NCBI GenBank assembly: GCA_030390025.1
Contig: CM059432.1
Coordinates: 1 to 64,000 of the forward strand
Reading direction: 5' to 3'
DNA from: Squalus acanthias
Taxonomy: Eukaryota
Length of the DNA stretch: 64,000 nt
Below the pieces are notes generated by a model that did no database searches, was not told the DNA's origin, and saw only the letters and a list, made by a program, of their open reading frames with translations. Positions 4,326 through 49,069 of this stretch are shown here, one piece after another; positions within the stretch are counted from its first letter, which is position 1, and each line of letters opens with the position of its first letter. Both the position numbers and the translations under genes were made by a program.

Positions 4326-7300
4326 CACACACTGACCCCGCCCCCGCACACTAACCCCGCCCCCCGCCCCGTCACTCACACTGACCCCGCCCCCGCACAC
4401 TAACCCCGCCCCCCGCCCCCGCCACTCACACTCACCCCGCCCCCCGCCCCGTCACTCACACTGACCCCGCCCCCGCACACTAACCCCGCCCCCCGACCCC
4501 GCCACTCACACTGACCCCGCCCCCGTCACTCACACTGACCCCGCCCCCGCCCCGTCACTCACACTGACCCCGCCCCCGCCACTCACACTGACCCCGCCCC
4601 CGCTCCTCACACACTGACCCCGCCCCCGCCACTCACACTGACCCCGCCCCCGCACACTAACCCCGCCCCCCGCCCCCGCCACTCACACTGACCCCCGCCC
4701 CCGCCACTCACACTGACCCCGCCCCCGCACACTAACCCCGCCCCCCGCCCCCGCCACTCACACTGACCCCGCCCCCGCCACTCACACTGACCCCGCCCCC
4801 GCACACTAACCCCGCCCCCCGCCCCCGCCACTCACACTGACCCCGCCCCCGCACACTAACCCCGCCCCCCGCCCCCGCCACTCACACTGACCCCGCCCCC
4901 GCCACTCACACTGACCCCGCCCCCGCACACTAACCCCGCCCCCCCGACCCCGCCACTCACACTGACCCCGCCCCCGCACACTAACCCCGCCCCCGCCACT
5001 CACACTGACCCCGCCCCCCGCCACTCACACTGACCCCGCCCCCCGCACACTAACCCCGCCCCCCGCCCCCGCCACTCACACTGACCCCGCCCCCGCCACT
5101 CACACTGACCCCGCCCCCGCACACTAACCCCGCCCCCCGCCCCCGCCACTCACACTGACCCCGCCCCCGCACACTAACCCCGCCCCCCGCCCCCGCCACT
5201 CACACTGACCCCGCCCCCGCCACTCACACTGACCCCGCCCCCGCACACTAACCCCGCCCCCCGCCCCCGTCACTCACACACTGACCCCGCCCCCGCACAC
5301 TAACCCCGCCCCCCGCCCCCGTCACTCACACACTGACCCCGCCCCCCGCCCCCGTCACTCACACACTGACCCCGCCCCCGCACACTAACCCCGCCCCCCG
5401 CCCCCGTCACTCACACACTGACCCCGCCCCCGCACACTAACCCCGCCCCCCCGCCCCCGTCACTCACACACTGACCCCGCCCCCCGCCCCCGTCACTCAC
5501 ACACTGACCCCGCCCCCGCACACTAACCCCGCCCCCGCCCCCGCCACTCACACTGACCCCGCCCCCGCACACTAACCCCGCCCCCCGCCCCGTCACTCAC
5601 ACTGACCCCGCCCCCGCACACTAACCCCGCCCCCCGCCCCGTCACTCACACTGACCCCGCCCCCGCACACTAACCCCGCCCCCCGCCCCCGCCACTCACA
5701 CTGACCCCGCCCCCGCACACTAACCCCGCCCCCCGCCCCGTCACTCACACTGACCCCGCCCCCGCACACTGACCCCGCCCCCACCCCCGCAACTCACACT
5801 GACCCCGCCCCCCATCACTCACACACTGACCCCCGCCCCCCATCACTCACACACTAACCCCGCCCCCCGCCCCCGCCACTCACACTGACCCCGCCCCCCG
5901 CCCCCGCCACTCACACTGACCCCGCCCCCGTCACTCACACACTGACCCCGCCCCCCGCCACTCACACTAACCCCGCCCCCCGCCCCCGCCCCTCACACTG
6001 ACCCCGCCCCCGCACACTAACCCCGCCCCCGCCACTCACACACTGACCCCGCCCCCGCCCCCGTCACTCACACTGACCCCGCCCCCGCCACTCACACTGA
6101 CCCCGCCCCCGCACACTAACCCCGCCCCCCGCCCCCGCCACTCACACTGACCCCGCCCCCGCACACTAACCCCGCCCCCCGCCCCCGCCACTCACACTAA
6201 CCCCGCCCCCGCCACTCACACTGACCCCGCCCCCGCACACTAACCCCGCCCCCCGCCCCCGCCACTCACACTGACCCCGCCCCCGCACACTAACCCCGCC
6301 CCCCGCCCCCGCCACTCACACACTGACCCCGCCCCCCGCCACTCACACTGACCCCGCCCCCGCACACTAACCCCGCCCCCCGCCCCCGCCACTCACACTG
6401 ACCCCGCCCCCGCACACTAACCCCGCCCCCCGCCCCCGCCACTCACACTGACCCCGCCCCCGCACACTAACCCCGCCCCCCGCCCCCGCCACTCACACTG
6501 ACCCCGCCCCCGCACACTAACCCCGCCCCCCGCCCCCGCCACTCACACTGACCCCGCCCCCGCACACTAACCCCGCCCCCCGCCCCCGCCACTCACACTG
6601 ACCCCGCCCCCGCCACTCACACTGACCCCGCCCCCGCACACTAACCCCGCCCCCCCGCCCCCGCCACTCACACTGACCCCGCCCCCGCACACTAACCCCG
6701 CCCCCCGACCCCGCCACTCACACTGACCCCGCCCCCGCCCCGTCACTCACACTGACCCCGCCCCCCGCCCCCGCCACTCACACTGACCCCGCCCCCGCCA
6801 CTCACACTGACCCCGCCCCCGCACACTAACCCCGCCCCCGCCACTCACACTGACCCCGCCCCCGCACACTGACCCCGCCCCCGCACACTGACCCCGCCCC
6901 CCCGTAACTCACACTGACCCCGCCCCCCGCCCCCCGTCACTCACACACTGACCCCGCCCCCCGTCACTCACACACTGACCCCGCCCCCCGCACACTAACC
7001 CCGCCCCCGCCACTCACACTGACCCCGCCCCCCGCACACTAACCCCGCCCCCGCCACTCACACTGACCCCGCCCCCGCCACTCACACACTGACCCCGCCC
7101 CCCCGCCCCCCCGCCACTCACACTGACCCCGCCCCCCGCCCCCCGCCACTCACACTGACCCCACCCCCGCCACTCACACTGACCCCCGCCCCCCGCCACT
7201 CACACACTGACCCCGCCCCCCGCCCCCCCGCCACTCACACACTGACCCCCGCCCCCCGCCCCCCCGCCACTCACACACTGACCCCGCCCCCCGCCCCCGT

Positions 7301-8425
7301 CACTCACACTGACCCCGCCCCCGCCACTCACACTGACCCCGCCCCCGCCACTCACACTGACCCCGCCCCCGCCACTCACACACTGACCCCGCCCCCGCCA
7401 CTCACACACTGACCCCGCCCCCCGCCCCCCGCCACTCACACTGACCCCGCCCCCCGCCACTCACACTGACCCCACCCCCGTCACTCACACTGACCCCGCC
7501 CCCGCCACTCACACTGACCCCGCCCCCGCCACTCACACTGACCCCGCCCCCGCCACTCACACACTGACCCCGCCCCCCGCCACTCACACACTGACCCCGC
7601 CCCCCCGCCCCCCGTCACTCACACACTGACCCCGCCCCCGCCACTCACACTGACCCCGCCCCCGCCACTCACACTGACCCCGCCCCGTCACTCACACTGA
7701 CCCCGCCCCCCGCCACTCACACACTGACCCCGCCCCCCGCCCCTGCCACTCACACACTGACCCCGCCCCCGCCACTCACACTGACACCGCCCCCGCCACT
7801 CACACACTGACCCCGCCCCCCGCCCCCGCCACTCACACACTGACCCCTCCCCCCGCCCCCGCCACTCACACACTGACCCCGCCCCCCGCCCCCGCCACTC
7901 ACACACTGACCCCGACCCCGCCACTCACACACTGACCCCTCCCCCCGCCCCCGCCACTCACACACTGACCCCGCCCCCGTCACTCACACACTAAACCCGC
8001 CTCCAGGCCCCCGTCACTCACACACTGACCCCGCCCCCCGCCCCGTCACTCACACACTGACCCCGCCCCCCGCCCGTCACTCACACACTGACCCCGCCCC
8101 CCGCCCCGTCACTCACACTGACCCCGCCCACCGCTCCTCACACACTAACCCCGCCCCCCGTCACTCACACACTAACCCCGCCCCGTCACTCACACACTAA
8201 CCCCGCCCCCCGCCACTCACACACTAACCCCGCCCCCGCCCCCGTCACTCACACACTAACCCCGCCCCCCGTCACTCACACACTAACCCCGCCCCCGTCA
8301 CTCACACAGGCCCCGCCCCGTCACTCACACACTGACCCCGCCCCTGTCACTCACACACTGGCCCCGCCCCCGTCACTCACACACTGACCCCGCCCCCGTC
8401 ACTCACACACTGACCCCGCCCCCCC
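4315..8425. repeat. C-rich minisatellite, left part (variants of cactcacactgaccccgccccc / cacactaaccccgccccc)
   Basis: Tandem 18-32 bp variant units with strong C/G strand skew. Confidence 0.95.
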
Positions 8426-8901
8426 AGTCATAGAATCATAGAAAGTTACAGCACGGAAGGAGGCCATTTCGGCCCATCGTGTCGCGCCGGCCAACAAAGA
8501 GCTGTCCAGCCTAATCCCACTTCCCAGCTTTTGGTCCGTAGCCCTGCAGGTTACAGCATCCCAAGTGCACATCCAAGTACTTTTTAAATGTGGTTAGGGT
8601 TCCTGTCTCTACCACCCTTTCAGGCAGTGAGTTCCAGACCCCCACCACCCTCTTGGTGAAGAAATTTCCCCTCAAATCCCCTCTAAACCTTCCACCAATT
8701 ACTTTAAATCTGTACCCCCTGGTTTTTGACCCGTCTGCTAAGGGAAATAGGTCCTTTCTATCCACTTTATCTAGGCCCCTCATAATTTTATACACCTCAA
8801 TAAGGTCTCCCCTCAGCCTCCTATGTTCCAAGGAAAACAGACCCAGCCTATCCAGTCTTTCCTCATAGCTAAGATTCTCTACTCCCGGCAACATCCTTGT
8901 A

Positions 8902-13800: not shown

Positions 13801-13890
13801 GAAGAATGAGAGGGGATCTCATTGAAGCATACAAAATTATTACAGGGCTTGATAGGATGGATGCTGGGAGAATGTTTCCCTTAGCTGGGG

Positions 13891-14606
13891 TGCAGAAATA
13901 TGAACTGGTGAATTGTGTAAAATGGTTGCCTTTAGAAAATGGTCGAGGACTGCGAAAACTGCAGCCACAGTGAGATCTGAAATAAACAAAACCTTGAAGC
14001 TGGGGGCCGAGGGCTGCTCAAATAACACAGTATACAGGCCTGCAAGAGAAGACAAGCTCGCAGGATGATCGAGTCTACAACAATAATTAACTCAAGATAA
14101 GGGTGACAATCTAGTCTAACGGTTGAGCAGTCGCAAATCACATAATAAGGGACCTCTGGAATCCCCGAAACGACCAAGGATACCGATTGGCTAAGGATGG
14201 ACTCATCTCAGACAAAATGGCCGAATCTGCACACGGCACATAGGTAGTGAAAATATCGATATAATAGAAGGGAGCCAAGAGCGAGTTTAGCAGCGAGAAC
14301 CTGGGAATCACACTCGAGAAGGGAGGAGCCACAAGTCCGGGACTTGTTGTCGGACACCAGCGCGAAGGCTGATCAACTTTCACACAGGTAATATTGTTTT
14401 AAGCTAGCACACATGGGAAGTGAGCCCTGTGTCATTTCCCTTGTAAGTTATTCAAACAACTTGTTAACCAATAAAGTACTGAATGTATGCAACTTACTGA
14501 GTCCGACCGACATTTGACACTTTGAACTAAGAACCATAATTGATGAACTGTTGTTGAGCTGAATACTTATTACTAGCTCAATAGATACAGTGAATCTGGG
14601 ACAACA
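13891..14606 (+). repeat. 5' LTR
   Basis: TG...CA ends, TATA-like motif at 14260 and AATAAA at 14470-14475. It aligns without gaps to 22797-23512, with about 24 mismatches by hand count. Confidence 0.95.
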
Positions 14607-14609
14607 AAC

Positions 14610-14627
14610 TGGCGACTGCGGCAGGAC
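14610..14627 (+). promoter_or_regulatory. Primer-binding site (TGGCGACTGCGGCAGGAC), tentatively tRNA-Ser type
   Basis: The TGG starts 3 nt after the LTR end. It partially matches the complement of vertebrate tRNA-Ser 3' ends (TGGCG....CGGCAGGA). Confidence 0.65.
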
Positions 14628-14641
14628 TTTTGACTTGAGAA

Positions 14642-15452
14642 GTGGGACTTTTCAAGAAGGACAAATTAAGAGTGTCAAACGGAATGAGTTGGAATCTTAA
14701 AAATAAGACACTACGTTACGGGATAACAATGGCGAGTAATAAAGGGGAGACCTCCCAGAGTTGGGAAGAACAGTATAGTAAATTAATGGTAGGAAATTAT
14801 AAAAACTGGGCAGAACAGAAAAAAGGAGGAGGTACCACAGCAGAACTCTGGGCTGCGGTACGCGAGGTAGCAGAGATAAATAGTACGGACCCTGTGATGG
14901 AATTAGCAAGTTTTAAACAGGCCACTGGGGAACACCCCCGCACCAATGCAGAACGCCTTTGGATAGTTTTCTGCAATGTCTTTGGAACACTGGAGCATGA
15001 CGACTTGGATGATACCCAAAAACCATTGTGACTAAAGTCCATCATCTCGCACGCTTCTGACCAGGGCCAAGAGGCCTGTAGAGTGTTCGACCCAAATGAG
15101 GCCACTCACAATGAAGCTTGGGTCTTAAGACGAATGATTATGGCCTGGCAAAACGACCAAAATAAACCCCCGTCCCAGTAAAAAGGGAAGGTGTATGCGT
15201 TTCAGCAGAATCAATGGAGGAATGGTCCTCCAACATGAAAGGCTGAGGGACCACCTGGGATACACAGGAGGGAACCAAGAGTACAGGGGAATTGGAGTAC
15301 CGAAGGGAGCGTGCTTTAACTGTGGGAAACAGGGACATTGGTCCCGAGAATGTGCAGCCCCGAAAAGAAGGACTAGGACAGGAGTGGTCGGAGGCTTAGG
15401 ACGAATGGCACCCGACCAGGAACAGCCAGGGCCAGAGCAGGGAGACCAATGA
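14642..15452 (+). pseudogene. gag: gag (stops and a frameshift) with CCHC zinc knuckle
   Basis: CFNCGKQGHWSREC (CX2CX4HX4C) in ORF 15195..15452, with a capsid-like helical region in ORF 14642..15031. It lies immediately after the PBS. Confidence 0.8.
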
Positions 15453-18400
15453 CTGGGTCCGACTTCGGACATCGTATGTGGGATAGGATATGACAAACAT
15501 GGACCACCTATAGTGTCAGGTACCGTAGGAGGTTTTATGGGACACAGGTGGATCCAGGACGTGCCTGAGAGACCAGCACCCTCTCTCACATAGCGATTTG
15601 ACAGACGTGACAGTTTTACTGAGCGGTTTTACTGGACACGGGCAAATGGCCACATTTACTAAACCGCTAGACATCCAATTGGGTCATTTAAAATTTAAGC
15701 ATGCCTGTTTATCGGTACCACAAATGCAGGGAGAAGAAGCGATACTCGGGATAGATTTCATGAGGAAATTTAATCTAGCCTATGATCCCGCGAACAGACA
15801 TATTTGGAGATTGCATGAAATATGTAATGATGGTTTGATACCGACCGGTCAATATGATGAACGGGTGTGTTGTATGAAAAATGTTTCCTTTAACCCCATA
15901 TTAATGACAAGTGAACCAGGGTTGCAGAAGGTGCTAAGTCAGAATTTAAATGCCTTGTAGGGGGAGGTGGTTTGTGTCAGCTTCACCTCTGACTTCTGAG
16001 CGGTTCGAATCGCTCCCACTCCCTTGGTTCTAGACCTTGGACTTATTTGGGGGTTGTGACAAAAGTGCAGCAGACAACTGGTTTTGGTGCAAGAACTTTG
16101 ATCTTTATTCAAGAGAGAAAATACAACACAACAATCTTAACACTCTAATAAAGTGGGGAACACTTCGGTACAAACGAGGGAAATAACATTAGAAGAATAC
16201 CTCACCCCTCCCAATCCCGCTTCACGAGCTAAGTTGGGCTCTAGAGAACCAGGGTTAACGCTCACCAAATGAATCCTTGACAGTTGAGCTGGTTTGCGGT
16301 TTTGGGGTTCGCTGGATTGGATTTATCGGGTGAGTACCCACTTTTCTTTGGTTAGAGGTAGGGTTTAGAGTCTTTTTAAGTAAAAAGTTTCGTAAGGCCC
16401 TTGTTGCCGCGAGGTGTCCGATGGTCACTGAGGCGGTCGCTCTGGTCTCTTCTTGCGTGTCGGCCTGCTTCTGGAGCTGTTGGCCTTCTTTGTTGAACTT
16501 CTTTCTGTTGCCCCCTCGCCTTGCTGAACTGCCTTCTTCAGAGCTGTGGAACTGCCTTCTTGCAGAACTGTGGAACTGCCTTCTTGCAGAACTGTGGAAC
16601 TGCCTTCTGCCTGCTTGTTGAACTTGTTTCTGTTGAACTGTGTAACTGTACTGGAGAACTCGAACTTGAACTGTTGAGAACGGGCCTTTAATTATACCCA
16701 TTGAAGCTTCCTTATCTGCACCAAATCAAATCCCAGTCATTGTAAGATTTTGGAGGGCTCGTTAACAGTAACTGGTTTGTAAATGTGTGAAGTGGTTTCA
16801 GAATAGCTCCATCCTGTCGATCTGTTGTTTAATTGTAGTTGAATTGTCCTCATGTTTTGGGTTTCTTGACTGGGCCTAGGATTTCTATAGAGTAGGCCGA
16901 AGTAATCTGTTTTATGCATGTCTTTAATGGGCTCTGTAAATTTGGGTGGAGACTGTTTTTCCTCAGGTATTGTTCGGATGTTAATGTCTGCTAGGGGCTG
17001 ATTTAACTCCAAGCGAGGTCATGCGGTTCCCCAGACAGTTCCCATGAACTCCAATATCCGAACTGTCTTTACAGAGGTTGATCCCACCTTCCTTTACAGC
17101 CTTTTCTCCCTCACAAGTCCAGACATGTCTTTTAAAATACCAAAATCTAGTTTTTTTCACTAAAATGTCCTTCGGTTAAGCTCAATGCATTTCACCACCT
17201 GTAATATTTAGAAAAAGAGTCCAAAGTCTTTTTTCCTTAGGGTTTGTCTTCGAGTTTTGGGGGATCTGTGAATTTTGAGAATCTTACAGCCTTTGCCACT
17301 CACAAACATGAGTGTGGTAGGACCACCGGAGAGGTGTTAATTACAGGACCCGATCCCCCACCCCAGAAACAGTATAAAATCCCAGTAGAAGCTGAAAAGG
17401 ATGTGGATAACATTATCCATAGCCTCCTGGAACAAGGCATACTTAGGCCTATCGCGTCTACCAATAACTCACCCATTTGGCCAGTCCAAAAGCCTGATAA
17501 ATCATGGCGCATGACTATAGACTACCGAGTATTAAATAACGTCACGCCTTCAGCAGCGCCCACGGTCGTCACCGCACCAAAGGCTGCTCTCAATTCTTCC
17601 CCAACCGCAAAATTCTTCACAGTATTGGATATTAGTCATGGATTTTGGTCCATACCGTTGGCCAAGGAATGTCAGTATAAATTTGCATTCACTCATAAAG
17701 GACAACAATACACTTGGACTTGTTTGCCCCAAGGTTTCCATAATAGCCCCTCGATATTCTCGAATATGACAACAAATGGGTTAAAGGGATTTTCTCAACC
17801 CTCAGCCCTTGTTCAGTACGTAGATGATATCCTACTCCAAACAGACACCCTTGAGGAACACGAGATCCTGTTACAAGAACTATTAGTAACTCTGTACAGA
17901 TTAGAGGTTAAAATAAACCCGAAAAAGGCACAGATTGGAAAACCAAAAGTGTAATATTTAGGGATGCAAGTAACCCAGGGGGCACGGGAGGTGACCGAAG
18001 ATAGAAAGAAGTCTGCCGCCACCTTACCCACCCCCACAGACGTCAAATCCCTCAGGTCCTTTTTAGGGATTACAGGGTACTGCCGGGATCACATTGAGGA
18101 CTACTCTGTGATCGCCAAACCCTTGTATAATCTACTAAGAAAGGGGGTGCTATGGGAATGGACCCAAGAACATGCGAACTCGTTCGGTAAATTAAAATCA
18201 GCATTGATCCAAGCCCCTGCACTACGAAACCCAGACATGTCTTCGAGCTTTTATCTGGAAACGGCCTCTAGCGAGGATGGTCTGTCAGCGGTATTACTGC
18301 AGGAACACTCTGGAAAGCTCCAATCTGTTGGTTACGCGTCCAGAGTTCTGACCCCCGTAGAAACAGTGTTCTCACCCTGTGAGAAAAACTTACTCAGTGT

Positions 18401-20483
18401 ATTTTGGGCCGTACATAAATTCTCCCCTACAGTCGGACTTAACTCTTTGATTATTCTCACCCCACATACTCCTATTAAAATGCTCCTGGATGGAAACTTT
18501 AAAGAAGGGGCAGTTAGTTCACAACCAATAGCTAGATGGACGCTACTCCTACCAGGAAGGGATATCCAGATTCGATATGAGCCAAAGCAAACTAGCCTAA
18601 CACAAAACATCTTATACCCCGGGGACCAACATGAGTGTAAAATTTTGTCATCAAGTGCCCTGACTGGTCCCTTTCAGACAAAATTAAGGGAGGGTGATAA
18701 CGATATAAGAATTAAAACTCATGTTTACGTAGATGGTTCATCATCAATACGGGAAGGACAACAGTGTCCAGGATTCGGAGTGGTAACTGCGACCGAGGAT
18801 GGGAAAAGGGTTCTTGAAACAACCCCAATTAAACTAGAAGGATCAAAAGGAGCACAAATAGCTGAACTAAGTGCCATAGCATATGTAGTATTGCAGCCAG
18901 AGTCATTTCCCCCACCGGTGGAAATTCATTCAGACAGCAGTTACACCTGCAACAGCCCAACAGACTTTTTACCCATTTGGCAAGCGAGAGGTTTCACGTC
19001 GGCAGACGGGAAACCATTAACAACGGGCCCACTTCCTAAAGTTATCTTTGACGCGGCCATGGCCAATCAGGGACAATATATAATGAAAAAGGTTAAAGCC
19101 CATGTAAAAACCACACCATTAGGAAATCAATTAGCAGATGAAGCAGCAAAACAAAGAGCCATTGATGGTTACCTATGGGACCCTCTGCAGGGAAAGGAAG
19201 GGACACTAACAGAAACCCTCTCGGCTGTCAAGGTATCCTCCAAGACAGTAATAGATCTAAGGGAGAGCCAAAGCTCTGACCCGGATCTGAACAATATCCA
19301 ATTAGGAAAGCCTTATCCCGAACCGTATAGTCAATATAGAACCGGTTTAACTTTAAATCAAGGAGTGGCGCTAAAGAACGGAAAATATGTGGTACCGGAG
19401 GTGGATAGACCCAAAATAATTTACCAGTTCCATGATGTGGGAGGACACCAGGGGATAGATAGAATTACTGCCAAGATTAGGGATGAATGTTGGTGGCCAG
19501 AAATACAATCAGATGTAGAGAAATACGTCAAGAACTGTTTGATTTGTGCTCAAAACAACCCTGGGAAATACAAGAATCAGGCTTTAATGGGACGCACTCG
19601 ACAGGGCAAGGGCCCCTGGGCCCAACTTCAGATAGATTATATAGGGCCACTGCCCACCTGCCCAGGAGGAAAGAAGTACATATTGGTAATAGTAGATGTA
19701 TTTTCTAAATGGATTGAGGCCTTCCCAACCAATAACAATTCAGCTGCCACCACCGCCAAAATCCTAATGGAAGAAGTGTTCTCCCGATGGGGATTACCCG
19801 AAAGCATCGACTCAGATCAAGGGATCCATTTTACTGGGCAGGTCATGAGATCGGTCATGCAGTTGGCTGGGGTAAAACAGGATTTTCACATTTCATACCA
19901 TCCAGAGTCCAGTGGGATGGTAGAAAGAATGAACAGGACCCTAAAAACTATGATGAGGAAATTGGTCCAACAAAATCATACCTCCTGGCATAGGGTGCTC
20001 CCTTCTGCATTAATGGCCATCCGGAACACGGTGGTAGCATCCACCGGCTACTCACCACATGAGCTAATGACAGGAAGGATTCTGAAAGGTATCGAGGCAT
20101 TTATGGGGATGGACCTAAGTGAAATCCAGAAGACATCCTTGTCATCTGAAAAATACAGGACTGATTTGGTGAAGTATTTGGAAGCGGCAAAAATGACCGC
20201 AGCCATAAAAATGGGAAAAAGGCATCAGAAAAGTAAAGCCTATTTTGACGGGAAAACCCACCCATGGGAAGTCAAGATAGGTGACCAGGTCATGGTTAAG
20301 ATCCAAAGGGAGGGAACATTCCTGAGCCCCAAATATGCAGGACCCTTTAGAGTAATGGAAAAAGCTAGTCCCTCCGTATATAAGATAATGGACGGACAAG
20401 GAAAGTACAAATGGCACCACATCAGTCAGTTAAAAACTTTCGGGAAAGTGGATAGTTTTCACCAGTACAACTGGATGCTTTAG
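15453..20483 (+). pseudogene. pol: pol: protease, RT, RNase H-like tether, RNase H, integrase (interrupted by a solo LTR, one nonsense codon at 17952 and a frameshift near 15530)
   Basis: Protease LWDTGGS (DTG at 15541) and ILGIDF. RT LPQGFHNSP and QYVDD. RNase H YVDGS/AEL/SDS/GNQLAD. Integrase HHCC, QIDY, SDQG, MVER and GPF. Confidence 0.92.
15956..17288 (-). mobile_element. Solo LTR (1333 bp) of an unrelated LTR element inserted in pol
   Basis: TGTA...TACA termini and GCCT TSD at 15952-15955 and 17289-17292. Minus-strand AATAAA lies at 16109-16104. Removing it restores the pol frame. Confidence 0.85.
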
Positions 20484-21050
20484 ATCCCCAGGGATTGGAT
20501 GAAGGAAATGATGGTTCAGATGACGGTAACCAATCAGATAGGTCCGATCAGGACTCAACAGGTCTGGTGGACGGAGTAGGGAACCTGTTCCTAAATGACG
20601 AACGGGACCCAAATGAATCTCCTCCTAACTCACCAATAAGGGAGACAGCGAGTACCGGGTCACCAAATTTCATGGCCGCCACTCACCAACTCCAGGGGTG
20701 GGCACACCTACCTGGAATGGATCGCTCCTCAAAGACCCCTCGTTTACAAAGGGTGACTGATATACAAGAAATAATTCATAAACTGTACATAAGAGCAGCT
20801 AGCATCTTGATCATGTTTGTATGTGTTTAGAAATGAATGCCGGAAATAATTCCAGTCGAAACCTCAGACGACTATCGCAACCGCTATCAAGAATGGAGTG
20901 AGCAGCTGTTCTGGACCCTTTTTCCATCTGGGACTTTTGGTGTTCGGAACATTCTTTATCCTATGGATCATCCATGAAATACGAAAGAATAGGGGACACC
21001 AACAGAACAACGAAGAAGGACAAGAGGAAATAGAGGCGGTTCGACAATGA
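20456..21050 (+). pseudogene. Putative accessory ORF between pol and env (acidic N-terminal part, single TM segment), degraded
   Basis: Open frame 20456-20830 is D/N/S-rich. Open frame 20850-21050 contains FFHLGLLVFGTFFILWII followed by HEIRKNR, and its TGA overlaps the env ATG (ATGA). Confidence 0.5.
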
Positions 21051-22758
21051 CGTGTTATATAATAATAACTTGTGTACTGATGATGTGTAGAATTAAACAG
21101 GGTACTGGGTGAACAGAAGGTGATTCTCGCCTCCGGGGAAAAAGACTATAATAGCGCGAATTGTATCACAGAGTTTAGTCACTGGAAGGCCCCAACCCAC
21201 GGAAACCATGAATGTAGCTGTCGTGGGATGGCTAGGACATGCCACCAGACTAGCTTTGCGGGGAACCTGACTAGGGTGTGTGTGACTTGCAGCCATACTA
21301 ACCAAGGTAAACGATCTATAGTCTGGCAGGCAAAGACCGAGAAGGATGGAATATACACAGTATCGTCAGGAGCCAATCCTCTAAGTAGACCAAATTGTAC
21401 CATCGAGGGGAGAAAGGTATGTTGTCAGATGGATCCACAGGCAAAGAGTTCACACTTATTCGTGGGATGTAGTAGTAATAGGGCGGTGGGAAACCTGACT
21501 TCTAATGCAAGGGTCCCCCAGAGACCTAATTGCTCCTGCGAAAGTCAAGGGAAGATCATAGTTCATCAGCTCCCTTCCACCCCCACCCCAGGACCAACTC
21601 CCACCCCTATGACCACTTCCCCATTCCCACCCACTCTGGCTCCTCCGAGAGAATGCCCCCAAGAAACGTCAGGACCAAAGGGAGGAGCTGTATTCAGGAC
21701 CACTGGCGAGATTGTGTATGATAATGTACAGTATGCACTGGTACCCGTCGTTTTGAATATGTCAGATCTCCAGTTGCCCGCCTGGTGTCCTACTAAACTG
21801 CAAGATATTCACCGAGACTTGATTAAGGGGTTGCTCCAACAGGAAATAGGCAATAATACTGGGGGGAACCGTACCCAGGAAGGAACAAGTGAGAGCAAGA
21901 AGGAATGAAGTTAGCGGAGGTTAAGAATATAGGGATAATACAGGAAGGACTATGGATGAGGTTTGATAATCTGTTACCATATGCTGTCGAACTAGATGGT
22001 ACCCTAGTCGATCCCACCCTAAATCAATGCCAACAAACTGACCAAATGGTAATATGCCCCGATAAGATTTATCCAACTAACGCGACAAGATGTGGGTTCA
22101 ATGGGATCAAAACCCTAAATTGTACGCTGGGAGTGGAATCTACCACTGGAAGAATCGTGAGAACCGGCTATCAGGGAAATGGAACTTACTGTTTTACCAC
22201 AACCGAGGTCAGCTATCACTATGGGAACAGGGAATGTCCCATAGAAACCCCGACCTTCTGTCTGCACCCTTTAATACCGATGAGATTGGGTAATGAAGAA
22301 ATTATCGATATTGAGCGAAGAGAAACAGGTTGAGATTAATGTGGCTGACGGTCTGAAAGGAAACTTGGACAATTACTTTGGAAAATATGACATCAGTATC
22401 CAATTAGAGAAGGAACATTTGATTAGGATCAAGCATCAGCCTTGAACTGGTATATCAGACTTACATACGAGTGGAACAGAACACACAGGAAATTGGCAAG
22501 GACATAAAGAGCATCAAGATAGACACATGGTGGGATGAAATATGGAATCGGGGTACAAATGTCAATATACACCCATGGATTAGAATATTCTCACACATTA
22601 CAGTTATTCTAGTTACTGTAATATTCCTGTGTCTGTGTGTCACCTGGAGAAGTATGATACGATTGGAAAAAGATTGAAGGGGCAACTCGAAAAAGATGGA
22701 GATGGGGCAAGTGATGAAGATGGAAGACCTGGAGGAGGCTACTAACTACAAAAGGTGA
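21047..22758 (+). pseudogene. env: env-like class I fusion glycoprotein, frameshifted and internally deleted
   Basis: Signal-like MTCYIIITCVLMMC, an RGKR motif, a Cys-rich domain and a Pro/Thr hinge. These are followed by RARR at 21892-21903, a Cys-rich block (21905..22333), a heptad region, WWDEIW and TM ITVILVTVIFLCLCV. Several N-x-S/T sequons are present. Confidence 0.8.
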
Positions 22759-22785
22759 TCAATATAATCTATGATTAAAATGATC

Positions 22786-22796
22786 AAAGGGAGGAG
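22786..22796 (+). promoter_or_regulatory. Polypurine tract
   Basis: AAAGGGAGGAG immediately before the 3' LTR. Confidence 0.85.
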
Positions 22797-23512
22797 TCTA
22801 GAAATATGAACTGGTGAATTGTGTAAAATGGTTGCCTTTAGAAAATGGTCGAAGACTGTGAAAACTGCAGCCACAGTGAGATCTCAAATAAACAAATCCT
22901 TGAAGCTGGGGGCCGAGGGCTGCTCAAATAACACAGTTAACAGGCCTGCAAGAGAAGACAAGCTCGCAGGGTGATCGAGTCTACGACAATAATTAACCCA
23001 AGATAAGGGTGACAATCTAGTCTAACGGTTGAGCAGTCGCAAATCACATAATAAGGGACCTCTGGAATTCCCGAAACGACCAAGGATACCGATTGGCTAA
23101 GGATGGACTCATCTCAGACAAAATGGCCGAATCTGCACACGGCACATAGATAGTAAAAATATCGATATAAAAGAAGGGAGCCAAGAGCTAGTTTAGCAGC
23201 GAGAACCTAGGAATCACACTCGAGAAGGGAGGAGCCACAAGTCCGGGACTTGTTGTCGGACACCAGCGCGAAGGCTGATCAACTTTCACACGGGTAATAT
23301 TGTTTTAAGCTAGCACACATGGGAAGTGAGCCCTGTGTCATTTCCCTTGTAAGTTATTCAAACAACTTGTTAACCAATAAAGTACTGAATGTATGCAACT
23401 TACTGAGTCCGACCGACATTTGACACTCTGAACTGAGAACCATAATTGTTGAACTGTTGTTGAGCTGACTACTTATTACTAGCTCAATAGATACAGTGAA
23501 TTCGGGACAACA
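22797..23512 (+). repeat. 3' LTR
   Basis: Copy of 13891-14606 with TATAAAA at 23166. It ends in CA, followed by the GGGG TSD. Confidence 0.95.
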
Positions 23513-24715
23513 GGGGAGTCGAGAACCAGGGGCCACAGCCTCAGGATAAGGGGTCGGCCATTCAGGACTGAGATGAGAAGAAATTTCTTCACACAGAGGG
23601 TGGTGAATCTTTGGAATTCTCTACCCCAGAGGGCTGTGGAGGCTCAGTCATTGGGTATATTCAAAACAGAAGTCGATAGATTTCTGACTAGTAAGGGTAT
23701 CAAGGGATATGGCGATAGGGCCGGTGAATGGAGTTGAGGCAGAAGATCAGCCGTGATCTCATTGAATGGTGGAGCAGGTTCAATGGGCCGAATGGCCGAC
23801 TCCTGCTCCTATTTCTTATGTTCTTAGCAAAATTTGCCTTTCCCCAATTTAGAATTTTTATTCCTGGTCTATCCTTGTCCTTTTTCATAACTACCTTAAA
23901 TCTAACAGAATTATGGTCACTAGCATCAAAATGCTCCCCCACTGATACGCCTTCTACCTGCCCAGCTTCATTCCCTAAAACTAAGTCCAGAACCGCCCCC
24001 TCCCTTGTTGGGCTTGCTACATACTGGCTAAAAAAGTTCTCCTGGATGCATTTTAGGAATTCCGCACCCTGTATACCCTTCACACTAATTTTATCCCAGT
24101 TAATATTGGGGTAGTTGAAATCCCCTACTATTACTGCCCTATAGTTTTTGCACTTCTCAGAAATTTGTCTACATATTTGTTCTTCTATCTCCCTCTCACT
24201 GTTTGGGGGTCTGTAGTACACTCCCAGCAGTGTGATCGCCCCTTTTTTGTTTTTCAATTCGACCCATATGGCCTCGTTTGATGATCCCTCCAACATATCA
24301 TCCCTCCTCACAGCTGTAATAGTTTCTTTAATCAATACCGCGACCCCCCCTCCCTTTTTACCTCCCTCTCTATCCCGTCTGAAAATCCTGTAACCAGGAA
24401 TGTTGAGCTGCCATACCTGCCCCTCTTTCAGCCACGTCTCTGTAATAGCTATAATATCATAGTCCCAAGTATCTACCTGTGCCCTCAGCTCATCTGCCTT
24501 GTTCGCTATACTCCTTGCATTGAAGTATATACCATTTAGTACAGGCAAACCTCCTTGTTGACTACTATCTAGCCCTTGATTCCTCTGTCCTTCCAATTTA
24601 CTTTCTACGTTTATGTTTTCCAATTCCAGTTTTTCTTCCCTCCCTACTGACTCTATACTTGGGTTCCCATCCCCCTGCCAAGCTAGTTTAAACCCTCCCC
24701 AACAGCACTAGCAAA

Positions 24716-24976: not shown

Positions 24977-25536
24977 AGCACTAGCAAACCCTCCCGCGAG
25001 GATATTGGTCCCGTTCCCATTGAGGTGCAACCCGTCTGGCTTGTAGAGGTCCCACCTCCCCCAGAAACGGTTCCAATTCCTCAGGAATCTAAAGCCCTCC
25101 CTCCCACACCATCTCTCCAGCCACGCATTCATCTGCTCTGTCCTCCTATTTCTGGACTCACTAGCACGTGGCACTGGGAATAATCCGGAGATTACTACCT
25201 TTGAGGACCTGTTTCTTAACCTCTTCCCTAGCTCCCTAAACTCTGCCTGCAGGACCTCATCCCTCTTCCTACCTATGTCGCTGGTACCGATATGGACCAC
25301 AACCTCTGGCTGTTCACCCTCCCCCCTCAGAATGCCCTGCAGCCGTTCAGTGACATCCTTGACCCTGGAACCAGGGAGGCAACATACCATCCTGGAGTCA
25401 CGTCTGCGGCCACAGAAACGCCTGTCTGCTCCCCTAACTATTGAATCCCCTATCACTATTGCTCTCCCTCTCCTCTTCCCCCTGCCTGTGCAGCTGAGCC
25501 TTCCATGGTGCTGTGGACTTGGCTCTGGCTGCACTC

Positions 25537-28500
25537 CCCTCCGTCACTCACACACTGACCCCGCCCCACCCCGTCACACACACACTGACCCCGCCCCACC
25601 CCGTCACTCACACACTGACCCCGCCCCCTCCCTCCGTCACTCACACACTGACCCCGCCCCCGTCCTCTGTCACTCACACACTGACTCCGCCCCCGCCCTC
25701 CGTCACTCACACACTGACCCCGCCCCACCCCGTCACACACACACTGACCCCGCCCCACCCCGTCACTCACACACTGACCCCGCCCCACCCCGTCACTCAC
25801 ACACTGACCCCGCCCCACCCATCACTCACACACTGACCTCCGCCCCCTCCCTCCGTCACTCACACACTGACCCCGCCCCCTCCCTCCGTCACTCACACAC
25901 TGACCCCGCCCCCACCCCATCACTCACACACTGACCCCGCCCCCTCCCTCCGTCACCCACACACTGACCCCGCCCCATCCCGTCACTCACACACTGACCC
26001 CGCCCCATCCCGTCACTCACACACTGACCCCGCCCCCTCCCTCCGTCACACACACACTGACCCCGCCCCACCCCGTCACTCACACACTGACCCCGCCCCC
26101 TCCCTCCGTCACTCACACACTGACCCCGCCCCCGCTCTCCGTCACTCACACACTGACCCCACCCCCGCTCTCCGTCACTCACACACTGACCCCGCCCCCT
26201 CCTTCCGTCACTCACACACTGACCCCGCCCCCGCCCTCCGTCACTCACACACTGACCCCGCCCCCTCCCTCCGTCACTCACACACTGACCCCGCCCCCGC
26301 CCTCCGTCACTCACACACTGACCCCGCCCCCTCCCTCCATCACTCACACACTGACCCCGCCCCCTCCCTCCGTCACTCACACACTGACCCCGCCCCCGCC
26401 CTCCGTCACTCACACACTGACCCTGCCCCCTCCCTCCATCACTCGCACACTGACCCCGCCCCCTCCCTCCGTCACTCACACACTGACCCCGCCCCCGCCC
26501 TCCGTCACTCACACACTGACCCCGCCCCCTCCCTCCGTCACTCACACACTGACCCCGCCCCCTCCCTCCGTCACTCACACACTGACCCCGCCCCCTCCCT
26601 CCGTCACTCACACACTGACCCCGCCCCCTCCCTCCGTCACTCACACACTGATCCCGCCCCCACCCCGTCACTCACACACTGACCCCGCCCCCGCCCTCCG
26701 TCACTCACACACTGACTCCTCCCCCACCTCATCACACACACACTGACTCCGCCCCCGCCCTCCGTCACTCAAACACTGAACCCGCCCCCGCCCTCCGTCA
26801 CTCACACACTGACCCCGCCCTCCGTCACTCACACACTGACTCTGCCCCCCGCCCTCCGTCACTCACACACTGACTCCGCCCCCACCTCGTCACACACACA
26901 CTGACTCTGCCCCCGCCCTCCGTCACTCACACACTGACTCCGCCCCCACCCCGTCACTCACACACTGACCCCGCCCCCGCCCTCCGTCACTCACACACTG
27001 ACTCCGCCCCCCACCCCCGTCACTCACACACGGACTCCGCCCCCACCCCGTCACACACACACTGACTCCGCCCCCGCCCTCCATCACTCACACACTGACC
27101 CCGCCCCCACACCGTCACACACACACTGACCCCGCCCCCACCCCATCACTCACACACTGACTCCGCCCCCGCCCTCCGTCACACACACACTGACTCCGCC
27201 CCGCCCTCCGTCACTCACACACTGACTCCGCCCCACCTCATCACACACACACTGACTCCGCCCCCGCCCTCCATCACTCACACACTGACTCCGCCCCCAC
27301 CCCGTCACTCACACACTGACCCCGCCCCCGCCCTCCGTCACTCACACACTGACTCCGCCCCACCCCGTCACTCACACACTGACTCCGCCCCCACCCCGTC
27401 ACACACACACTGACTCCGCCCCCGCCCTCCATCACTCACACACTGACCCCGCCCCCACACCGTCACACACACACTGACCCCGCCCCCACCCCATCACTCA
27501 CACACTGACTCCGCCCCCGCCCTCCGTCACACACACACTGACCCCGCCCCACCCCGTCACTCACACACTGACTCTGCCCCCGCCCTCCGTCACTCACACA
27601 CTGACCCCGCCCACCCCGTCACTCACACACTGACCCCGCCCCCCGCCCTCCGTCACTCACACACTGACCCCGCCCCGGCCCCGTCACTCACACACTGACC
27701 CCGCCCCACCCCATCACTCACACACTGACCCCGCCCCCTCCCTCCGTCACTCACTCACTGACCCCGCCCCCACCCCATCACTCACACACTGACTACGCCC
27801 TCAGTCATCACACACTGACCCCGCCCCACCCGTCACTCACACACTGAACCCGCCCCACCCCGTCACTCACACACTGACCCCCCCCTCCCTCCGTCACTCA
27901 CACACTGACCCCGCCCCCAACCTGTCACTCACCACTGACCCCGCCCCTCCCTCCGTCACTCACACACTGACTCCGCCCCCTCCCTCCGTCACTCACACAC
28001 TGACCGCGCCCCCTCCCTCCGTCACTCACTCACTGACCCCGCCCCCACCCCATCACTCACACACTGACCCGCCCCCTCCCTCCGTCACCCACACACTGAC
28101 CCCGCCCCATCCCGTCACTCACACACTGACCCCGCCCCATCCTGTCACTCACACACTGACCCCGCCCCCTCCCTCCGTCACACACACACTGACCCCGCCC
28201 CACCCCGTCACTCACACACTAACCTCGCCCCCGCTCTCCGTCACTCACACACTGACCCCACCCCTGCTCTCCGTCACTCACACACTGACCCCGCCCCCTC
28301 CCTCCGTCACTCACACACTCACCCCCGCCCCCGCTCTCCGTCACTCACACACTGACCCCGCCCCCTCCCTCCGTCACTCACACACTGACCCCGCCCCCCT
28401 CCCTGTGTCACTCACACACTGACCCCGCCCCCTCCCTCCGTCACTCACACACTGATCCCGCCCCCACCCCCACCCCGTCACTCACACACTGACCCCGCCC

Positions 28501-30417
28501 CCTCCCTCCGTCACTCACACACTGACCCCCGCCCCCGCCCTCCGTCACTCACACACTGACCCCGCCCCCCGCCCTCCGTCACTCACACACTGACCCCGCC
28601 CCCTCCCTCCATCACTCGCACACTGACCCCGCCCCCTCCCTCCGTCACTCACACACTGACCCCGCCCCGCCCTCCGTCACTCACACACTGACCCCGCCCC
28701 CTCCCTCCGTCACTCACACACTGACCCCGCCCCCTCCCTCCGTCACTCACACACTGATCCCGCCCCCACCCTGTCACTCACACACTGACCCCGCCCCCTC
28801 CCTCAGTCACTCACACACTGACCCTGCCCCCTCCCTCCGTCACTCACACACTGATCCCGCCCCCACCCCGTCACTCACACACTGACCCCGCCCTCCGTCA
28901 CTCACACACTGACTCCGCCCCACCTCATCACACACACACTGACTCCGCCCCTGCCCTCCGTCACTCACACACTGACCGTGCCCCCGCCCTCCGTCACTCA
29001 CACACTGACCCCGCCCCCGCCCTCCGTCACTCACACACTGACTCCGCCCCCGCCCTCCGTCACTCACACACTGACTCCGCCCCCACCTCATCACGCACAC
29101 ACTGACTCTGCCCCCGCCCTCCGTCACTCACACACTGACTCCGCCCCCACCCCGTCACTCACACACTGACCCCGCCCCCGCCCTCCGTCACTCACACACT
29201 GACTCCGCCCCCGCTCTCCGTCACTCACACACTGACTCCGCCCCCACCCCGTCACTCACACACTGACCCCGCCCCCGCCCTCCGTCACTCACACACTGAC
29301 TCCGCCCCCGCCCTCCGTCACTCACACACTGACCCCGCCCCACCCCGTCACACACACACTGACCCCGCCCCCCGCCCTCCGTCACTCACACACTGACCCC
29401 GCCCCGGCCCCATCGTCACTCACACACTGACCCCGCCCCACCCCGTCACTCACACACTGACCCCGCCCCCTCCCTCCGTCACTCACTCACTGACCCCGCC
29501 CCCACCCCGTCACTCACACACTGACTCCGCCCTCCGCCCTCAGTCACTCACACACTGACCCCACCCCCACCCCGTCACTCACACACTGACTCCACCCCTG
29601 CCCTCCGTCACTCACACACTGACCACGCCCCCTCCCTCCGTCACTCACACACTGACTCTGCCCCCCGCCCTCCGTCACTCACTCACTGACCCCGCCCCCG
29701 CCCTCCGTCACTCACTCACTGACCCCGCCCCCGCCCTCCGTCACTCACTCACTGACCCCGCCCCCGCCCTCCTTCACTCACGCGCTGACCCCGCCCCCGC
29801 CCCGTCACTCACACGCTGACTTCGCCCCCTCCCCGTCACTCACGCGCTGACCCCGCCCCCGCCCTGTCACTCACACACTGACCCCGCCCCCGCCCCGTCA
29901 CTCACACACTGACCCCGCCCCCGCCCTCCGTCACTCACACACTGACCCCGCCCCCACCCCGTCACTCACACACTGACCCCGCCCCCGCCCTCCGTCACTC
30001 ACTCACTGACTCCGCCCCGCCCCGTCACTCACGCGCTGACCCCGCCCCCGCCCTCCGTCACTCACTCACTGACTCCGCCCCCGCCCCGTCACTCACACGC
30101 TGACTTCGCCCCCGCCCCGTCACTCACGCGCTGACCCCGCCCCCGCCCCGTCACTCACACACTGACCCCGCCCCGTCACTCACACACTGACCCCGCCCCC
30201 GCCCTCCGTCACTCACACACTGACCCCGCCCCCACCCCGTCACTCACACACTGACCCCGCCCCCGCCCTCCGTCACTCACTCACTGACTCCGCCCCGCCC
30301 CGTCACTCACGCGCTGACCCCGCCCCCGCCCTCCGTCACTCACTCACTGACTCCGCCCCCGCCCTGTCACTCACGTGCTGACCCCGCCCCCGCCCCGTCA
30401 CTCACACACTGACCCCT
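25537..30417. repeat. C-rich minisatellite, right part (ccgtcactcacacactgaccccgccccc variants)
   Basis: Tandem variant units of about 27-33 bp with the same core as 4315-8425. Confidence 0.95.
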
Positions 30418-47934: not shown

Positions 47935-47974
<40 letters not shown>

Positions 47975-47998
47975 TCTCTCTCTCTCTCACTCTCTCAC

Positions 47999-48064
<66 letters not shown>

Positions 48065-49005: not shown

Positions 49006-49058
<53 letters not shown>

Positions 49059-49069
49059 ACACTCTCTCA

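Follow-up and report, generated by a model that had tools for sequence, protein, structure and literature searches.

A damaged endogenous retrovirus in a putative shark genome, best read as a relative of snakehead retrovirus with a predicted F-fold envelope

The provirus at positions 13891–23512 of the window, the whole stretch of 64,000 nucleotides that was analysed, raises the question to which retroviral lineage it belongs. The original prediction had described it as a complete, lokiretrovirus-type provirus in a cartilaginous fish, with two RNase H folds in pol and an env laid out like a paramyxo/pneumovirus F protein. We therefore examined the anatomy of this copy, the fold of its envelope and its position among known retroviruses.

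Anatomy and decay of the provirus

The predicted order LTR-PBS-gag-pol-env-PPT-LTR with a 4-bp target-site duplication was confirmed, all proviral features lying on the plus strand. The flanks carry the duplication GGGG (5′ copy at 13887–13890, 3′ copy at 23513–23516), and alignment of the two LTRs to each other delimits a 5′ LTR at 13891–14606 (TG...CA) and a 3′ LTR at 22797–23512, whose start is mutated to TC and which ends in CA. The pair is identical at 691 of 713 positions in a local alignment and shows 24 differences over 716 positions, corresponding to a K2P distance of 0.034. Three nucleotides past U5 lies the primer binding site, the TGG-initial 18-mer TGGCGACTGCGGCAGGAC (14610–14627); of the tRNA genes found in the genome, the closest to it codes for an intron-bearing tRNA-Arg(TCG), which matches 16 of the 18 positions with CCA counted. 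The polypurine tract AAAGGGAGGAG (22786–22796) adjoins the 3′ LTR and is separated from the env stop by 11 nt.

While both ends are intact enough to justify the term complete, the interior is not: the provirus is a dead, heavily damaged copy with deletions and frameshifts in gag and env. The gag remnant (14729–15452, assigned from frames and Pfam) begins with MASNKG and closes with a TGA at 15450–15452. About 955 bp that are present in six of six other copies are missing at ~14812, a deletion that takes the coiled coil, the PPPY motif and most of CA and leaves the CCHC knuckle at ~15309–15353. The protease region (15453–15956, likewise from frames and Pfam, DTG at 15541–15549) is out of the gag frame in the window copy; gag, a single TGA and pro-pol share one frame in 6/6 other copies examined. 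Further frameshifts affect the gag-pro junction, the env signal peptide, the stretch around 22333–22423 and the env tail. Comparison with other copies also identified an unrelated repeat of ~1.3 kb at 15957–17277 with an imperfect flanking duplication of ~14 nt. Other copies lack it, their flanks joining directly, and it is found alone elsewhere in the genome; its 3′ limit is approximate. The pol stop expected at 17952 is there, as an in-frame TAA at 17952–17954.

A Pfam search on the window's own reading frames returned zf-CCHC (E 3e-7), RVT_1 (6e-31), RT_RNaseH_2 (2e-24), RNase_H (2e-17), Integrase_H2C2 (4e-20) and rve (5e-16), with RVP just under the cut-off (E 7e-4). Frames and Pfam place the reverse transcriptase at 17293–18158. 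It is followed by a tether at 18159–18551, the RT_RNaseH_2 match, which is a degenerate Ty3-type RNase H, and by a second RNase H at 18717–19160, the RNase_H match, with the motifs VDGS, AEL, SDS and ADEAAK. Because of these two matches pol holds two RNase H-type domains, and the tether plus second RNase H that had been taken as the retroviral arrangement are thus both visible to Pfam. Active relatives carry TDAS and TDH. Read by eye, the tether has TASS and TPH instead, the first and third acidic residues being lost. The integrase (19392–20438) comprises an H2C2 zinc domain and a DDE core and ends in an SH3-like domain with a GPF motif. The separate gene "ORFX" proposed downstream (20456–20830) turned out to be the acidic C-terminal end of Pol: seven other copies have it in the pol frame, from which a 7-nt deletion near 20464 displaces it in the window copy.

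The envelope and the history of the family

The env remnant (21047–22774), traced by frames, comparison with other copies and a fold model, opens with a frameshifted signal peptide and ATG from 21047 and retains a membrane anchor at 22585–22647 and the ancestral stop at 22772–22774. A deletion junction at ~21891–21911 separates a Cys-rich/Pro-rich SU from F1-like head domains and heptad repeat B; the 541 nt missing here contain the furin site, the fusion peptide and heptad repeat A. As predicted, env is not of the gamma type, with neither CX6CC in the natural env frames checked nor a TLV_coat or GP41 Pfam match in natural frames. The Pfam family Fusion_gly (PF00523) was not matched by any of six natural env frames at E <= 10 or by any of 40 Env homologues at E <= 0.1, and a whole-genome PF00523 scan, run with a strict filter under which the controls stayed silent and thus of little weight, gave no match either. 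The ESM Atlas pointed Env to Fusion_gly clusters (0.89), which we take as a lead only.

An AlphaFold model of a natural 619-aa env frame of another copy reached a pLDDT of 64.8 overall and above 80 across most of residues 160–230 and 330–560. Foldseek against the PDB returned 252 matches at E <= 0.001, the best being RSV F (1.4e-11), and among the matches listed every one was a pneumo/paramyxovirus F. VIA-align gave Z 12.4 to hPIV3 F (model residues 164–557 against F residues 26–431) and 224 chains at Z >= 8, of which the best 50 listed were all F. Hence, the Env of full-length copies is predicted to have the paramyxo/pneumovirus F fold, which agrees with the F-like layout noticed at the outset. 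Full-length Env, estimated at ~800 residues from the frames of several copies, shows the F2 and F1 head fold, a basic cleavage site, fusion peptide, heptad repeats A and B and an anchor. With F proteins it shares the F2-like/F1-like core (Z 10–12.4 over about 290–330 aligned residues) and the order furin site, fusion peptide, heptad repeat A, head domains, heptad repeat B and anchor, whereas identity is only about 9–15% and a ~230-residue N-terminal extension is absent from F. As a putative class I fusion protein, Env would consist of a signal peptide, this Cys-/Pro-rich extension, which is probably receptor-binding, an F2-like strand region, the furin site RRRRR, fusion peptide, heptad repeat A, F head domains, heptad repeat B, anchor and tail.

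The genome holds at least 25 copies of the family. Across the env junction, 16 of 25 copies are deleted, eight are full and one is otherwise deleted. The copy tree is star-like with end branches of 0.012–0.023, fitting the LTR divergence given above. We lean towards reading the provirus as one dead copy of a single-burst, shark-type ERV family of at least 25 members, which belongs to a clade of shark, frog and coelacanth elements and has snakehead retrovirus (SnRV), an unclassified virus of fish, as its closest known exogenous relative. A single burst of entry into a shark-type genome would have given rise to this family. Minus-strand synthesis would have been primed by a tRNA on the PBS, most likely tRNA-Arg. 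The ancestral Gag probably combined a capsid region and a single CCHC knuckle with a long coiled coil and a PPPY late motif, and Pro-Pol may have been made via read-through of the one in-frame UGA. Judged from its sequence, Pol would have supplied a protease and an RT, then two RNase H domains, the first Ty3-like, inactive and serving as tether, the second an active addition, and finally an integrase resembling those of Ty3/gypsy. Because most copies are without cleavage site, fusion peptide and heptad repeat A, the deleted-env copies may have spread with the help of full-length copies (trans-complementation) or without leaving the cell.

Probable placement beside snakehead retrovirus, and rival readings

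We take our reference L050 for SnRV on account of its length of 10,688 nt and the TAGGGC context of its gag stop, as given in the accessible portions of the sources (PMC12193657, PMC13517186). In phmmer searches with PR-RT it scored highest (286 bits; best gammaretrovirus 208, best foamy virus 205). The L050 leader also holds a PBS-like stretch starting with TGG, which we presume to fit tRNA-Arg. Trees were built on a reference set without epsilonretrovirus, ERV-L, lokiretrovirus or Odin. In a PR-RT-tether tree of 41 rows the family, frog elements and SnRV grouped at 98/97; in one of 39 rows the family joined frogs, Xenopus, coelacanth and two further rows at 95/91, and SnRV was the sister of this group (96/96). 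The grouping with SnRV was weaker in an RT-only tree (82/61), and SnRV is a long branch (0.97–1.38 in three trees). When the family was forced outside all labelled retroviruses including SnRV, AU tests gave p 0.147, 0.023 and 0.070, so that a position outside the canonical retroviruses is not firmly rejected, two of the three tests (p 0.147 and 0.070) permitting it.

Alignment of the Env-family profile to SnRV Env by hhalign (probability 92.3%, E 5.6e-7, 349 collinear columns including the basic cleavage site) argues, on sequence comparison, that the two envelopes are homologous. SnRV Env itself gave a poor model (pLDDT 58), for which NDV F was the closest fold at only E 1.4e-3. Gag showed only weak coiled-coil and knuckle matches to SnRV Gag. 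Tether, RNase H and integrase found higher-scoring partners among Ty3/gypsy, gamma or foamy references than in SnRV, which was absent from the best 14 integrase scores and low for tether and RNase H. By these comparisons, PR-RT and Env appear to be the only links between the family and SnRV. Both have gag, a single stop and pro-pol in one frame and a Gag with a coiled coil and one CCHC knuckle, but the stop is TAG in SnRV and TGA in the shark family, and SnRV Env has 1134 residues against the ~800 estimated here. SnRV further possesses accessory ORFs, according to the part of the source consulted (PMC12193657), whereas the shark family leaves no space for them after env.

A foamy-like (spuma-related) ERV of sharks is a further candidate. 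Among solved structures the N-terminal half of RT matched foamy PR-RT best (E 3e-39, against 3e-24 for MLV), and PFV integrase was among the best solved matches to the integrase. The accessible text of PMC11468914 assigns paramyxo/pneumovirus F and foamy Env to a class I "subclass Ib" and describes an F core common to both, and "foamy-like" ERVs of sharks and frogs known from pol only have been published, as far as the part of PMC5512871 available states. However, foamy viruses and the true foamy-like ERV of the same genome form a 100/100 clade without the family. No env frame or homologue matches Foamy_virus_ENV, which 11 other places in the genome do, hhalign of Env against simian foamy Env reaches a probability of only 22%, and foamy entries are not among the Foldseek or VIA-align matches listed. 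Env also has no conserved leader peptide of the foamy type before the signal peptide, the upstream frames differing between copies, and the family has a Cys-His (CCHC) box in Gag and a pol probably read through from gag. With RT outside the foamy clade, we disfavour this identity as very unlikely.

That the element is no retrovirus but a Ty3/Gypsy retrotransposon (Metaviridae) with an envelope is more improbable still. With members of the family's clade set aside, the top scores of integrase and tether go to Ty3/gypsy-type references, and Env gives weak Baculo_F matches (E 0.015 and 0.0011). Yet the PR-RT trees split six to eight gypsy rows from the family at 100/99 to 100/100 and place it among retroviruses, and pol bears an added second RNase H next to a degenerate first one. 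We thus disfavour this identity as well.

The live rival to the SnRV-related reading is that the family is a lokiretrovirus or a chondrichthyan/amphibian sister lineage of them, its grouping with SnRV being due to long-branch attraction or to SnRV itself lying close to lokiretroviruses; the comparison was made by published description. We regard this as possible but rather doubtful. The two groups share the LTR-gag-pol-env-LTR layout with tether and RNase H (PMC7947760), and the dual RNase H is combined in the family with an Env of predicted Mononegavirales-F fold; both Envs are related to Mononegavirales F, with basic cleavage site, fusion peptide, coiled coil and membrane anchor. The integrase looks non-retroviral in both. 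In the family it resembles no exogenous retrovirus tested, its nearest proteins are labelled "NYNRIN-like" by NCBI, and a quick tree, which contained no true mammalian NYNRIN, put it with support of 95 among Ty3/gypsy integrases and those of "NYNRIN-like" vertebrate proteins, at a distance from SnRV, foamy and gamma. CGIN1 and NYNRIN are the same gene. Lokiretroviral integrase has been reported with CGIN1 and the lokiretroviral RNase H with foamy viruses (PMC7947760); outside its own clade, the family's RNase H scored best with P0013 and then with foamy viruses. The hosts of the nearest Pol and integrase relatives (Xenopus, bullfrog, eel, gar, bowfin, coelacanth and turtle) overlap the published lokiretrovirus hosts, and a lamprey ERV that a 2018 study assigned to clade Huo, the SnRV-related group (PMC6001957), was later named a lokiretrovirus (PMC8922424). 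The two AU tests that did not reject an outside position fit this reading too, lokiretroviral RT forming a single clade that lies outside the canonical retroviruses.

Against it stand the lack of a PF00523 match, the sequence-level hallmark of lokiretroviral Env, in the env frames and homologues, the sister position of SnRV with one AU test at p 0.023, and the homology of Env to SnRV Env. The family Gag has a CCHC knuckle, whereas that of the zebrafish lokiretrovirus Bik-1 has a glycine-rich patch instead, according to the part seen of bioRxiv 10.1101/2024.03.25.586437, and its integrase has the GPF motif, which the accessible portion of a 2025 paper lists for Gypsy, Retroviridae and Odin, lokiretroviruses being unnamed there (PMC12440569). 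Moreover, the discoverers of lokiretroviruses left all five chondrichthyan genomes that they screened unmarked, as well as Pyxicephalus, the host of the close relative P0002: in Supplementary Table S2 of Wang and Han 2020 (PMC7947760), S. torazame, C. milii, C. plagiosum, C. punctatum and R. typus stand without the asterisk, which from its pattern we read as the lokiretrovirus-positive mark. The label lokiretrovirus-type thus found no support in these comparisons, and the family is best read as an SnRV-related ERV with an F-fold Env that sits in the SnRV-related "clade Huo" neighbourhood (Xu et al. 2018) and is not a demonstrated lokiretrovirus. It is conceivable, with some reserve, that the shark-frog-coelacanth clade together with SnRV forms a jawed-vertebrate branch of lokiretroviruses or their immediate sister. 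If so, the F-fold Env would be an old trait common to SnRV-, loki- and foamy-type retroviruses rather than the result of a single capture, the host range would extend to cartilaginous fishes, and the culturable SnRV would offer a living virus for studying an F-fold envelope.

Host and previously known chondrichthyan relatives

The expectation of a cartilaginous-fish host was borne out by the nearest proteins, and their sequences support a shark as host of the provirus. The relatives seen in sharks, frogs and coelacanth are best read as a jawed-vertebrate retrovirus clade. SnRV-like chondrichthyan ERVs as such have been known since 2015, when Han published those of the elephant shark (PMC4422223, consulted in part). 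The portion of that paper available held no description of an Env fold for CmiERV lineage I. By its description alone, this lineage is a full-length chondrichthyan ERV of similar size that clusters with SnRV, with an LTR divergence of 0.033 against the 0.034 of the shark family.

Structure and decay of the provirus

Gapless local alignment of the window revealed direct repeats at 13894–14606 and 22800–23512, identical at 691 of 713 positions, which a repeat search of the window had first picked up as a 300-nt repeat. Extended to TG...CA ends, they represent the 5′ long terminal repeat (LTR, 13891–14606, forward strand) and the 3′ LTR (22797–23512, forward strand), the start of the latter being mutated to TC. 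Both LTRs differ at 24 of 716 positions (K2P 0.034), and GGGG is present on both outer flanks of the provirus. The primer-binding site (PBS), TGGCGACTGCGGCAGGAC on the forward strand, lies three bases past U5, and a purine tract (PPT), AAAGGGAGGAG on the forward strand, abuts the 3′ LTR. A Pfam run on the window's own stop-to-stop frames returned zf-CCHC (E 3e-7), RVT_1 (E 6e-31), RT_RNaseH_2 (E 2e-24), RNase_H (E 2e-17), Integrase_H2C2 (E 4e-20) and rve (E 5e-16), as well as the retroviral protease RVP (E 7e-4, just under its cut-off). The LTRs, GGGG flanks, PBS, purine tract and Pfam domains thus demonstrate that the proviral anatomy of the original prediction is real and far beyond chance. 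The provirus region is flanked by C-rich minisatellite arrays at 4328–8430 and 25536–30423, which have periods of 24/50 and 33/64, about 150 units each, strong GC skew and a GC content of up to 0.76. Other tandem arrays of the window are located at 1428–2374 (67 nt × 14), 47938–51951 ((CTCT)n/(TC)n, about 1.2 kb each) and 52511–53844 (33 nt × 40).

We sought further copies in the 3.7-Gb assembly, where the env region gave 61 matches at 93–97% identity, and compared the window copy against them. Its gag is devoid of about 955 bp at ~14812, a segment kept in all six other copies compared. Within pol, positions 15957–~17277 are an unrelated repeat that is found alone elsewhere; other copies join its flanks, so that the excision proposed for this insert was right. 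This 1.3-kb repeat is very abundant (5901 first-look genome candidates for a query containing it) and includes a short tandem of about 24 nt. Pol further carries an in-frame TAA at 17952–17954, and a 7-nt deletion near 20464 shifts its end to another frame. The frame at 20456–20830, initially taken for a separate gene (ORFX), is the C-terminal tail of Pol in seven other copies and was displaced by this 7-nt deletion; it does not stand as a gene of its own. In env, 541 nt are missing at ~21891–21911, between two similar short words, in the window and in 15 other copies. Among the 25 copies spanning this site, 16 are deleted, 8 possess the segment and one is deleted otherwise. With this segment, the deleted copies have lost SERRRRRS, a stretch resembling a fusion peptide and a long heptad repeat.

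Twelve copies compared in a DNA tree radiate as an unresolved star, their end branches measuring 0.012–0.023. Deleted and full forms are intermixed in it, and no separate clade of env-deleted copies emerged. This pattern is consistent with a single burst and in line with the divergence between the LTRs. Under rates between 2.2e-10 and 2.2e-9 per site per year, the divergence of the LTRs translates into roughly 78 to 8 million years, a very rough date since it depends on the assumed rate. The window copy itself is an ordinary dead provirus.

Gag, Pol and primer tRNA of the family

The genes of the family were deduced from frames that occur naturally in other copies, without joining or mending any. 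Gag comprises at least 573 amino acids in one copy, begins with MASNKG and contains a long coiled coil, a PPPY motif, a capsid-like portion and one CCHC knuckle. The gag frame terminates in TGA (context TGACTG) and pro-pol continues in the same frame in 6/6 copies. This layout matches the read-through design that the accessible part of one source describes for gamma- and epsilonretroviruses (PMC13517186) and is unlike that of foamy viruses. By eye, the second RNase H of Pol retains its acidic motifs. Active relatives of the tether, a degenerate Ty3-type RNase H, carry TDAS and TDH; the tether of the family has a strong Ty3-type RNase H signature, yet displays TASS and TPH at these positions (by eye). 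A first search for Pol homologues gave 16 matches.

The complement of the PBS is widespread in the genome, and other LTR families bear it too. Genome-wide, about 4,050 sites carry its 15-nt core or a variant with one mismatch, compared to about 40 for the reversed control, and at least two other repeat families (L125–L133) harbor the same 18-nt PBS directly after an LTR-like end. None of nine loci with the PBS complement contained a tRNA gene; they belong to other LTR elements sharing this PBS. A genome search with a longer pattern yielded, as the closest tRNA gene, an intron-bearing tRNA-Arg(TCG) that matches the PBS at 16/18 positions. It is located at 1432–1523 in both L134 and L135, clustered with tRNA-Ser(GCT) and tRNA-Lys(CTT), and this cluster occurs on two contigs.

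Sequence and predicted fold of the envelope

The env gene starts with an ATG at window position 21047, followed by a hydrophobic signal peptide, and ends 11 nt before the PPT, leaving therefore no room for an accessory gene after env. A hydrophobic frame at 20850–21050 was considered as a foamy-type leader peptide and dropped, since its frame is not conserved between copies. Env possesses one furin-type site, and CX6CC is absent from the natural env frames checked. Pfam detected none of Fusion_gly, Foamy_virus_ENV, TLV_coat and GP41 in the window env frames or in any of six natural frames, and nothing useful in the window env pieces and ORFX; the best match of the natural frames was Baculo_F (E 0.015). 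Querying PDB sequences by phmmer with one natural env frame of 395 aa gave no match at E ≤ 10. P0017, a natural 619-aa env frame of another copy, retrieved 40 relatives among 1.84 billion representatives, none of which matched Fusion_gly or Foamy_virus_ENV. Those looked up stem from the sharks Mustelus, Chiloscyllium, Pristiophorus and Heterodontus and the frogs Pelodytes and Mantella. One relative carries the UniRef name 'Ig-like domain-containing'.

We modelled P0017 with AlphaFold using an alignment of 35 of the 40 relatives. The model (pLDDT 64.8) is confident across most of residues 160–230 and 330–560, and about 230 residues ahead of the F2-like part are poorly modelled. Foldseek returned 252 PDB matches at E ≤ 0.001; those listed were all pneumovirus or paramyxovirus F proteins, with RSV F as the best (1.4e-11). 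VIA-align superimposed model residues 164–557 on residues 26–431 of hPIV3 F (Z 12.4) and gave 224 chains at Z ≥ 8, with F being 50 of the 50 entries listed. The foamy virus Env structures 8RM0 and 8RM1 were not among the matches listed by either program, a lower-down match being possible. An ESM Atlas look-up of env also pointed in the F direction (0.89) and serves as a lead only. The proposed likeness of Env to paramyxovirus and pneumovirus F is hence confirmed as a predicted fold for full-length env.

Relationship to snakehead retrovirus and lokiretroviruses

As references we employed natural genomes obtained from IMG/VR via short RT-motif patterns, labelled foamy, gamma, delta, beta, alpha or lenti by Pfam on env/gag frames and comprising no lokiretrovirus sequence. 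A profile scan yielded L050, a genome of 10,688 nt in which gag, pol and env are intact. The accessible parts of two sources give the same length and TAGGGC gag stop context for snakehead retrovirus (SnRV; PMC12193657, PMC13517186), which L050 is accordingly taken to be. The PR-RT portion of the shark family scored 286 bits with SnRV; the corresponding values were 208 for the best gammaretrovirus, 205 for the best foamy virus and 191 for a gypsy element. The shark family, its frog relatives and SnRV grouped weakly in an RT-only tree (294 columns, 82/61) and with 98/97 in a careful search on PR-RT-tether (486 columns). In an enlarged tree with five more Pol proteins from the integrase search (two of Xenopus tropicalis, one of coelacanth and two more), the family fell inside a clade of nine rows (95/91), to which SnRV was sister (96/96). 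Foamy viruses together with a foamy-like endogenous retrovirus (ERV) of the same genome (100/100) were located elsewhere in this tree, and gypsy rows (100/100) were placed apart from the shark family. SnRV forms a long branch in the trees.

A profile of the Env family aligned with residues 518–904 of SnRV Env over 349 columns (92.3% probability, E 5.6e-7), with the basic cleavage sites of both in register, and reached only 22% probability against simian foamy Env. The low-confidence model of SnRV Env had no fold match at E ≤ 0.001; its best matches were again F proteins, at an E of only 1.4e-3. A different ERV family at six other places in the genome (L021–L026) has an env matching Pfam Foamy_virus_ENV (11 matches in the genome, best E 3e-22) and an RT that groups with exogenous foamy viruses (100/100). 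True foamy-like ERVs thus coexist with the shark family in this genome.

Other results stand against a placement with SnRV. In an 842-aa frame of the window, neither tether nor RNase H nor integrase is SnRV-like; the best integrase scores outside the family's own clade were with gypsy elements, followed by gamma and foamy viruses. AU tests addressed an alternative, named after the first tree had been seen, in which the shark family lies outside every labelled retrovirus, SnRV among them. The p values were 0.147 on RT alone, 0.023 on PR-RT-tether and 0.070 on the enlarged set. A quick integrase tree placed the family apart from SnRV, with Ty3/gypsy integrases and vertebrate proteins that NCBI names 'NYNRIN-like' (95); hosts of the latter are catshark, sevengill shark, Xenopus, bullfrog, eel, gar, bowfin, turtle and coelacanth. 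NYNRIN is presumably the present name of the gene CGIN1.

This integrase affinity is also what would be expected if the shark family were a lokiretrovirus, a less likely but live reading. The lokiretrovirus paper reports a similar pattern, RNase H with foamy viruses and integrase with CGIN1, and its host list overlaps the species of the 'NYNRIN-like' relatives (PMC7947760). The AU values of 0.147 and 0.070 do not reject a position outside the labelled retroviruses, and a lamprey ERV later termed lokiretrovirus was placed in clade Huo, the SnRV-related retroviruses, in 2018, according to the accessible parts of two sources (PMC6001957, PMC8922424). Against this reading, the type assigned in the original prediction found no support in the sequence test, as Fusion_gly remained unmatched in 0/6 natural env frames and 0/40 Env relatives. 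Further hints against it come from the literature. Asterisks in Table S2 of the lokiretrovirus paper coincide with host groups named in its text, and we infer that they mark genomes with lokiretroviruses; five chondrichthyan genomes carry none, among them Chiloscyllium punctatum, a species with an Env homologue, and nor does Pyxicephalus adspersus, the holder of the close Pol relative P0002 (PMC7947760). The main texts of two lokiretrovirus/Odin papers contain none of the words shark, Chondrichthyes and cartilaginous. In the accessible text on the zebrafish lokiretrovirus Bik-1, Gag has a glycine-rich patch, not a zinc knuckle (bioRxiv 10.1101/2024.03.25.586437). The integrase of the shark family carries GPF, and GPF/Y is listed for Gypsy, Retroviridae and Odin, with lokiretroviruses unnamed, in the accessible portion of a 2025 paper (PMC12440569).

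We thus lean, if slightly, towards an ERV of the SnRV-related part of the retroviral tree as the best-supported assignment; the family combines a Ty3/gypsy-like integrase with an F-fold Env. Cartilaginous fishes are already represented in the SnRV-related group by the elephant shark ERV CmiERV lineage I (PMC4422223), and clade Huo is described as present 'in all major vertebrate lineages' (PMC6001957), both as stated in the accessible text. What seems new is the F fold in the shark Env family and, by homology, in the Env of a living fish retrovirus. The titles and abstract openings of the papers found on snakehead retrovirus and paramyxovirus do not concern the SnRV envelope, though supplements and subscription papers may differ, and the foamy Env structure paper names neither lokiretroviruses nor SnRV in its accessible text (PMC11468914). 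An F-like Env was published for lokiretroviruses by sequence in 2020 (PMC7947760) and, as the accessible text describes, for foamy viruses by structure in 2024 (PMC11468914). The origin of retroviral envelopes is an open question, and the shark ERV family with its Env relatives in other sharks and frogs represents a third group with an F fold at good statistics, which the exogenous SnRV joins by profile homology. If true, F-type fusion proteins would mark a broad and deep part of the retroviral tree, and SnRV would provide an experimental handle on an F-type envelope. Envelope capture of a different kind is seen in the retroelement on L051, an IMG/VR contig (1–7573): its Ty3/gypsy-like pol has one RNase H and lies ahead of a 711-aa frame that matches Pfam Monjiviricetes_fusion (E 9e-260).
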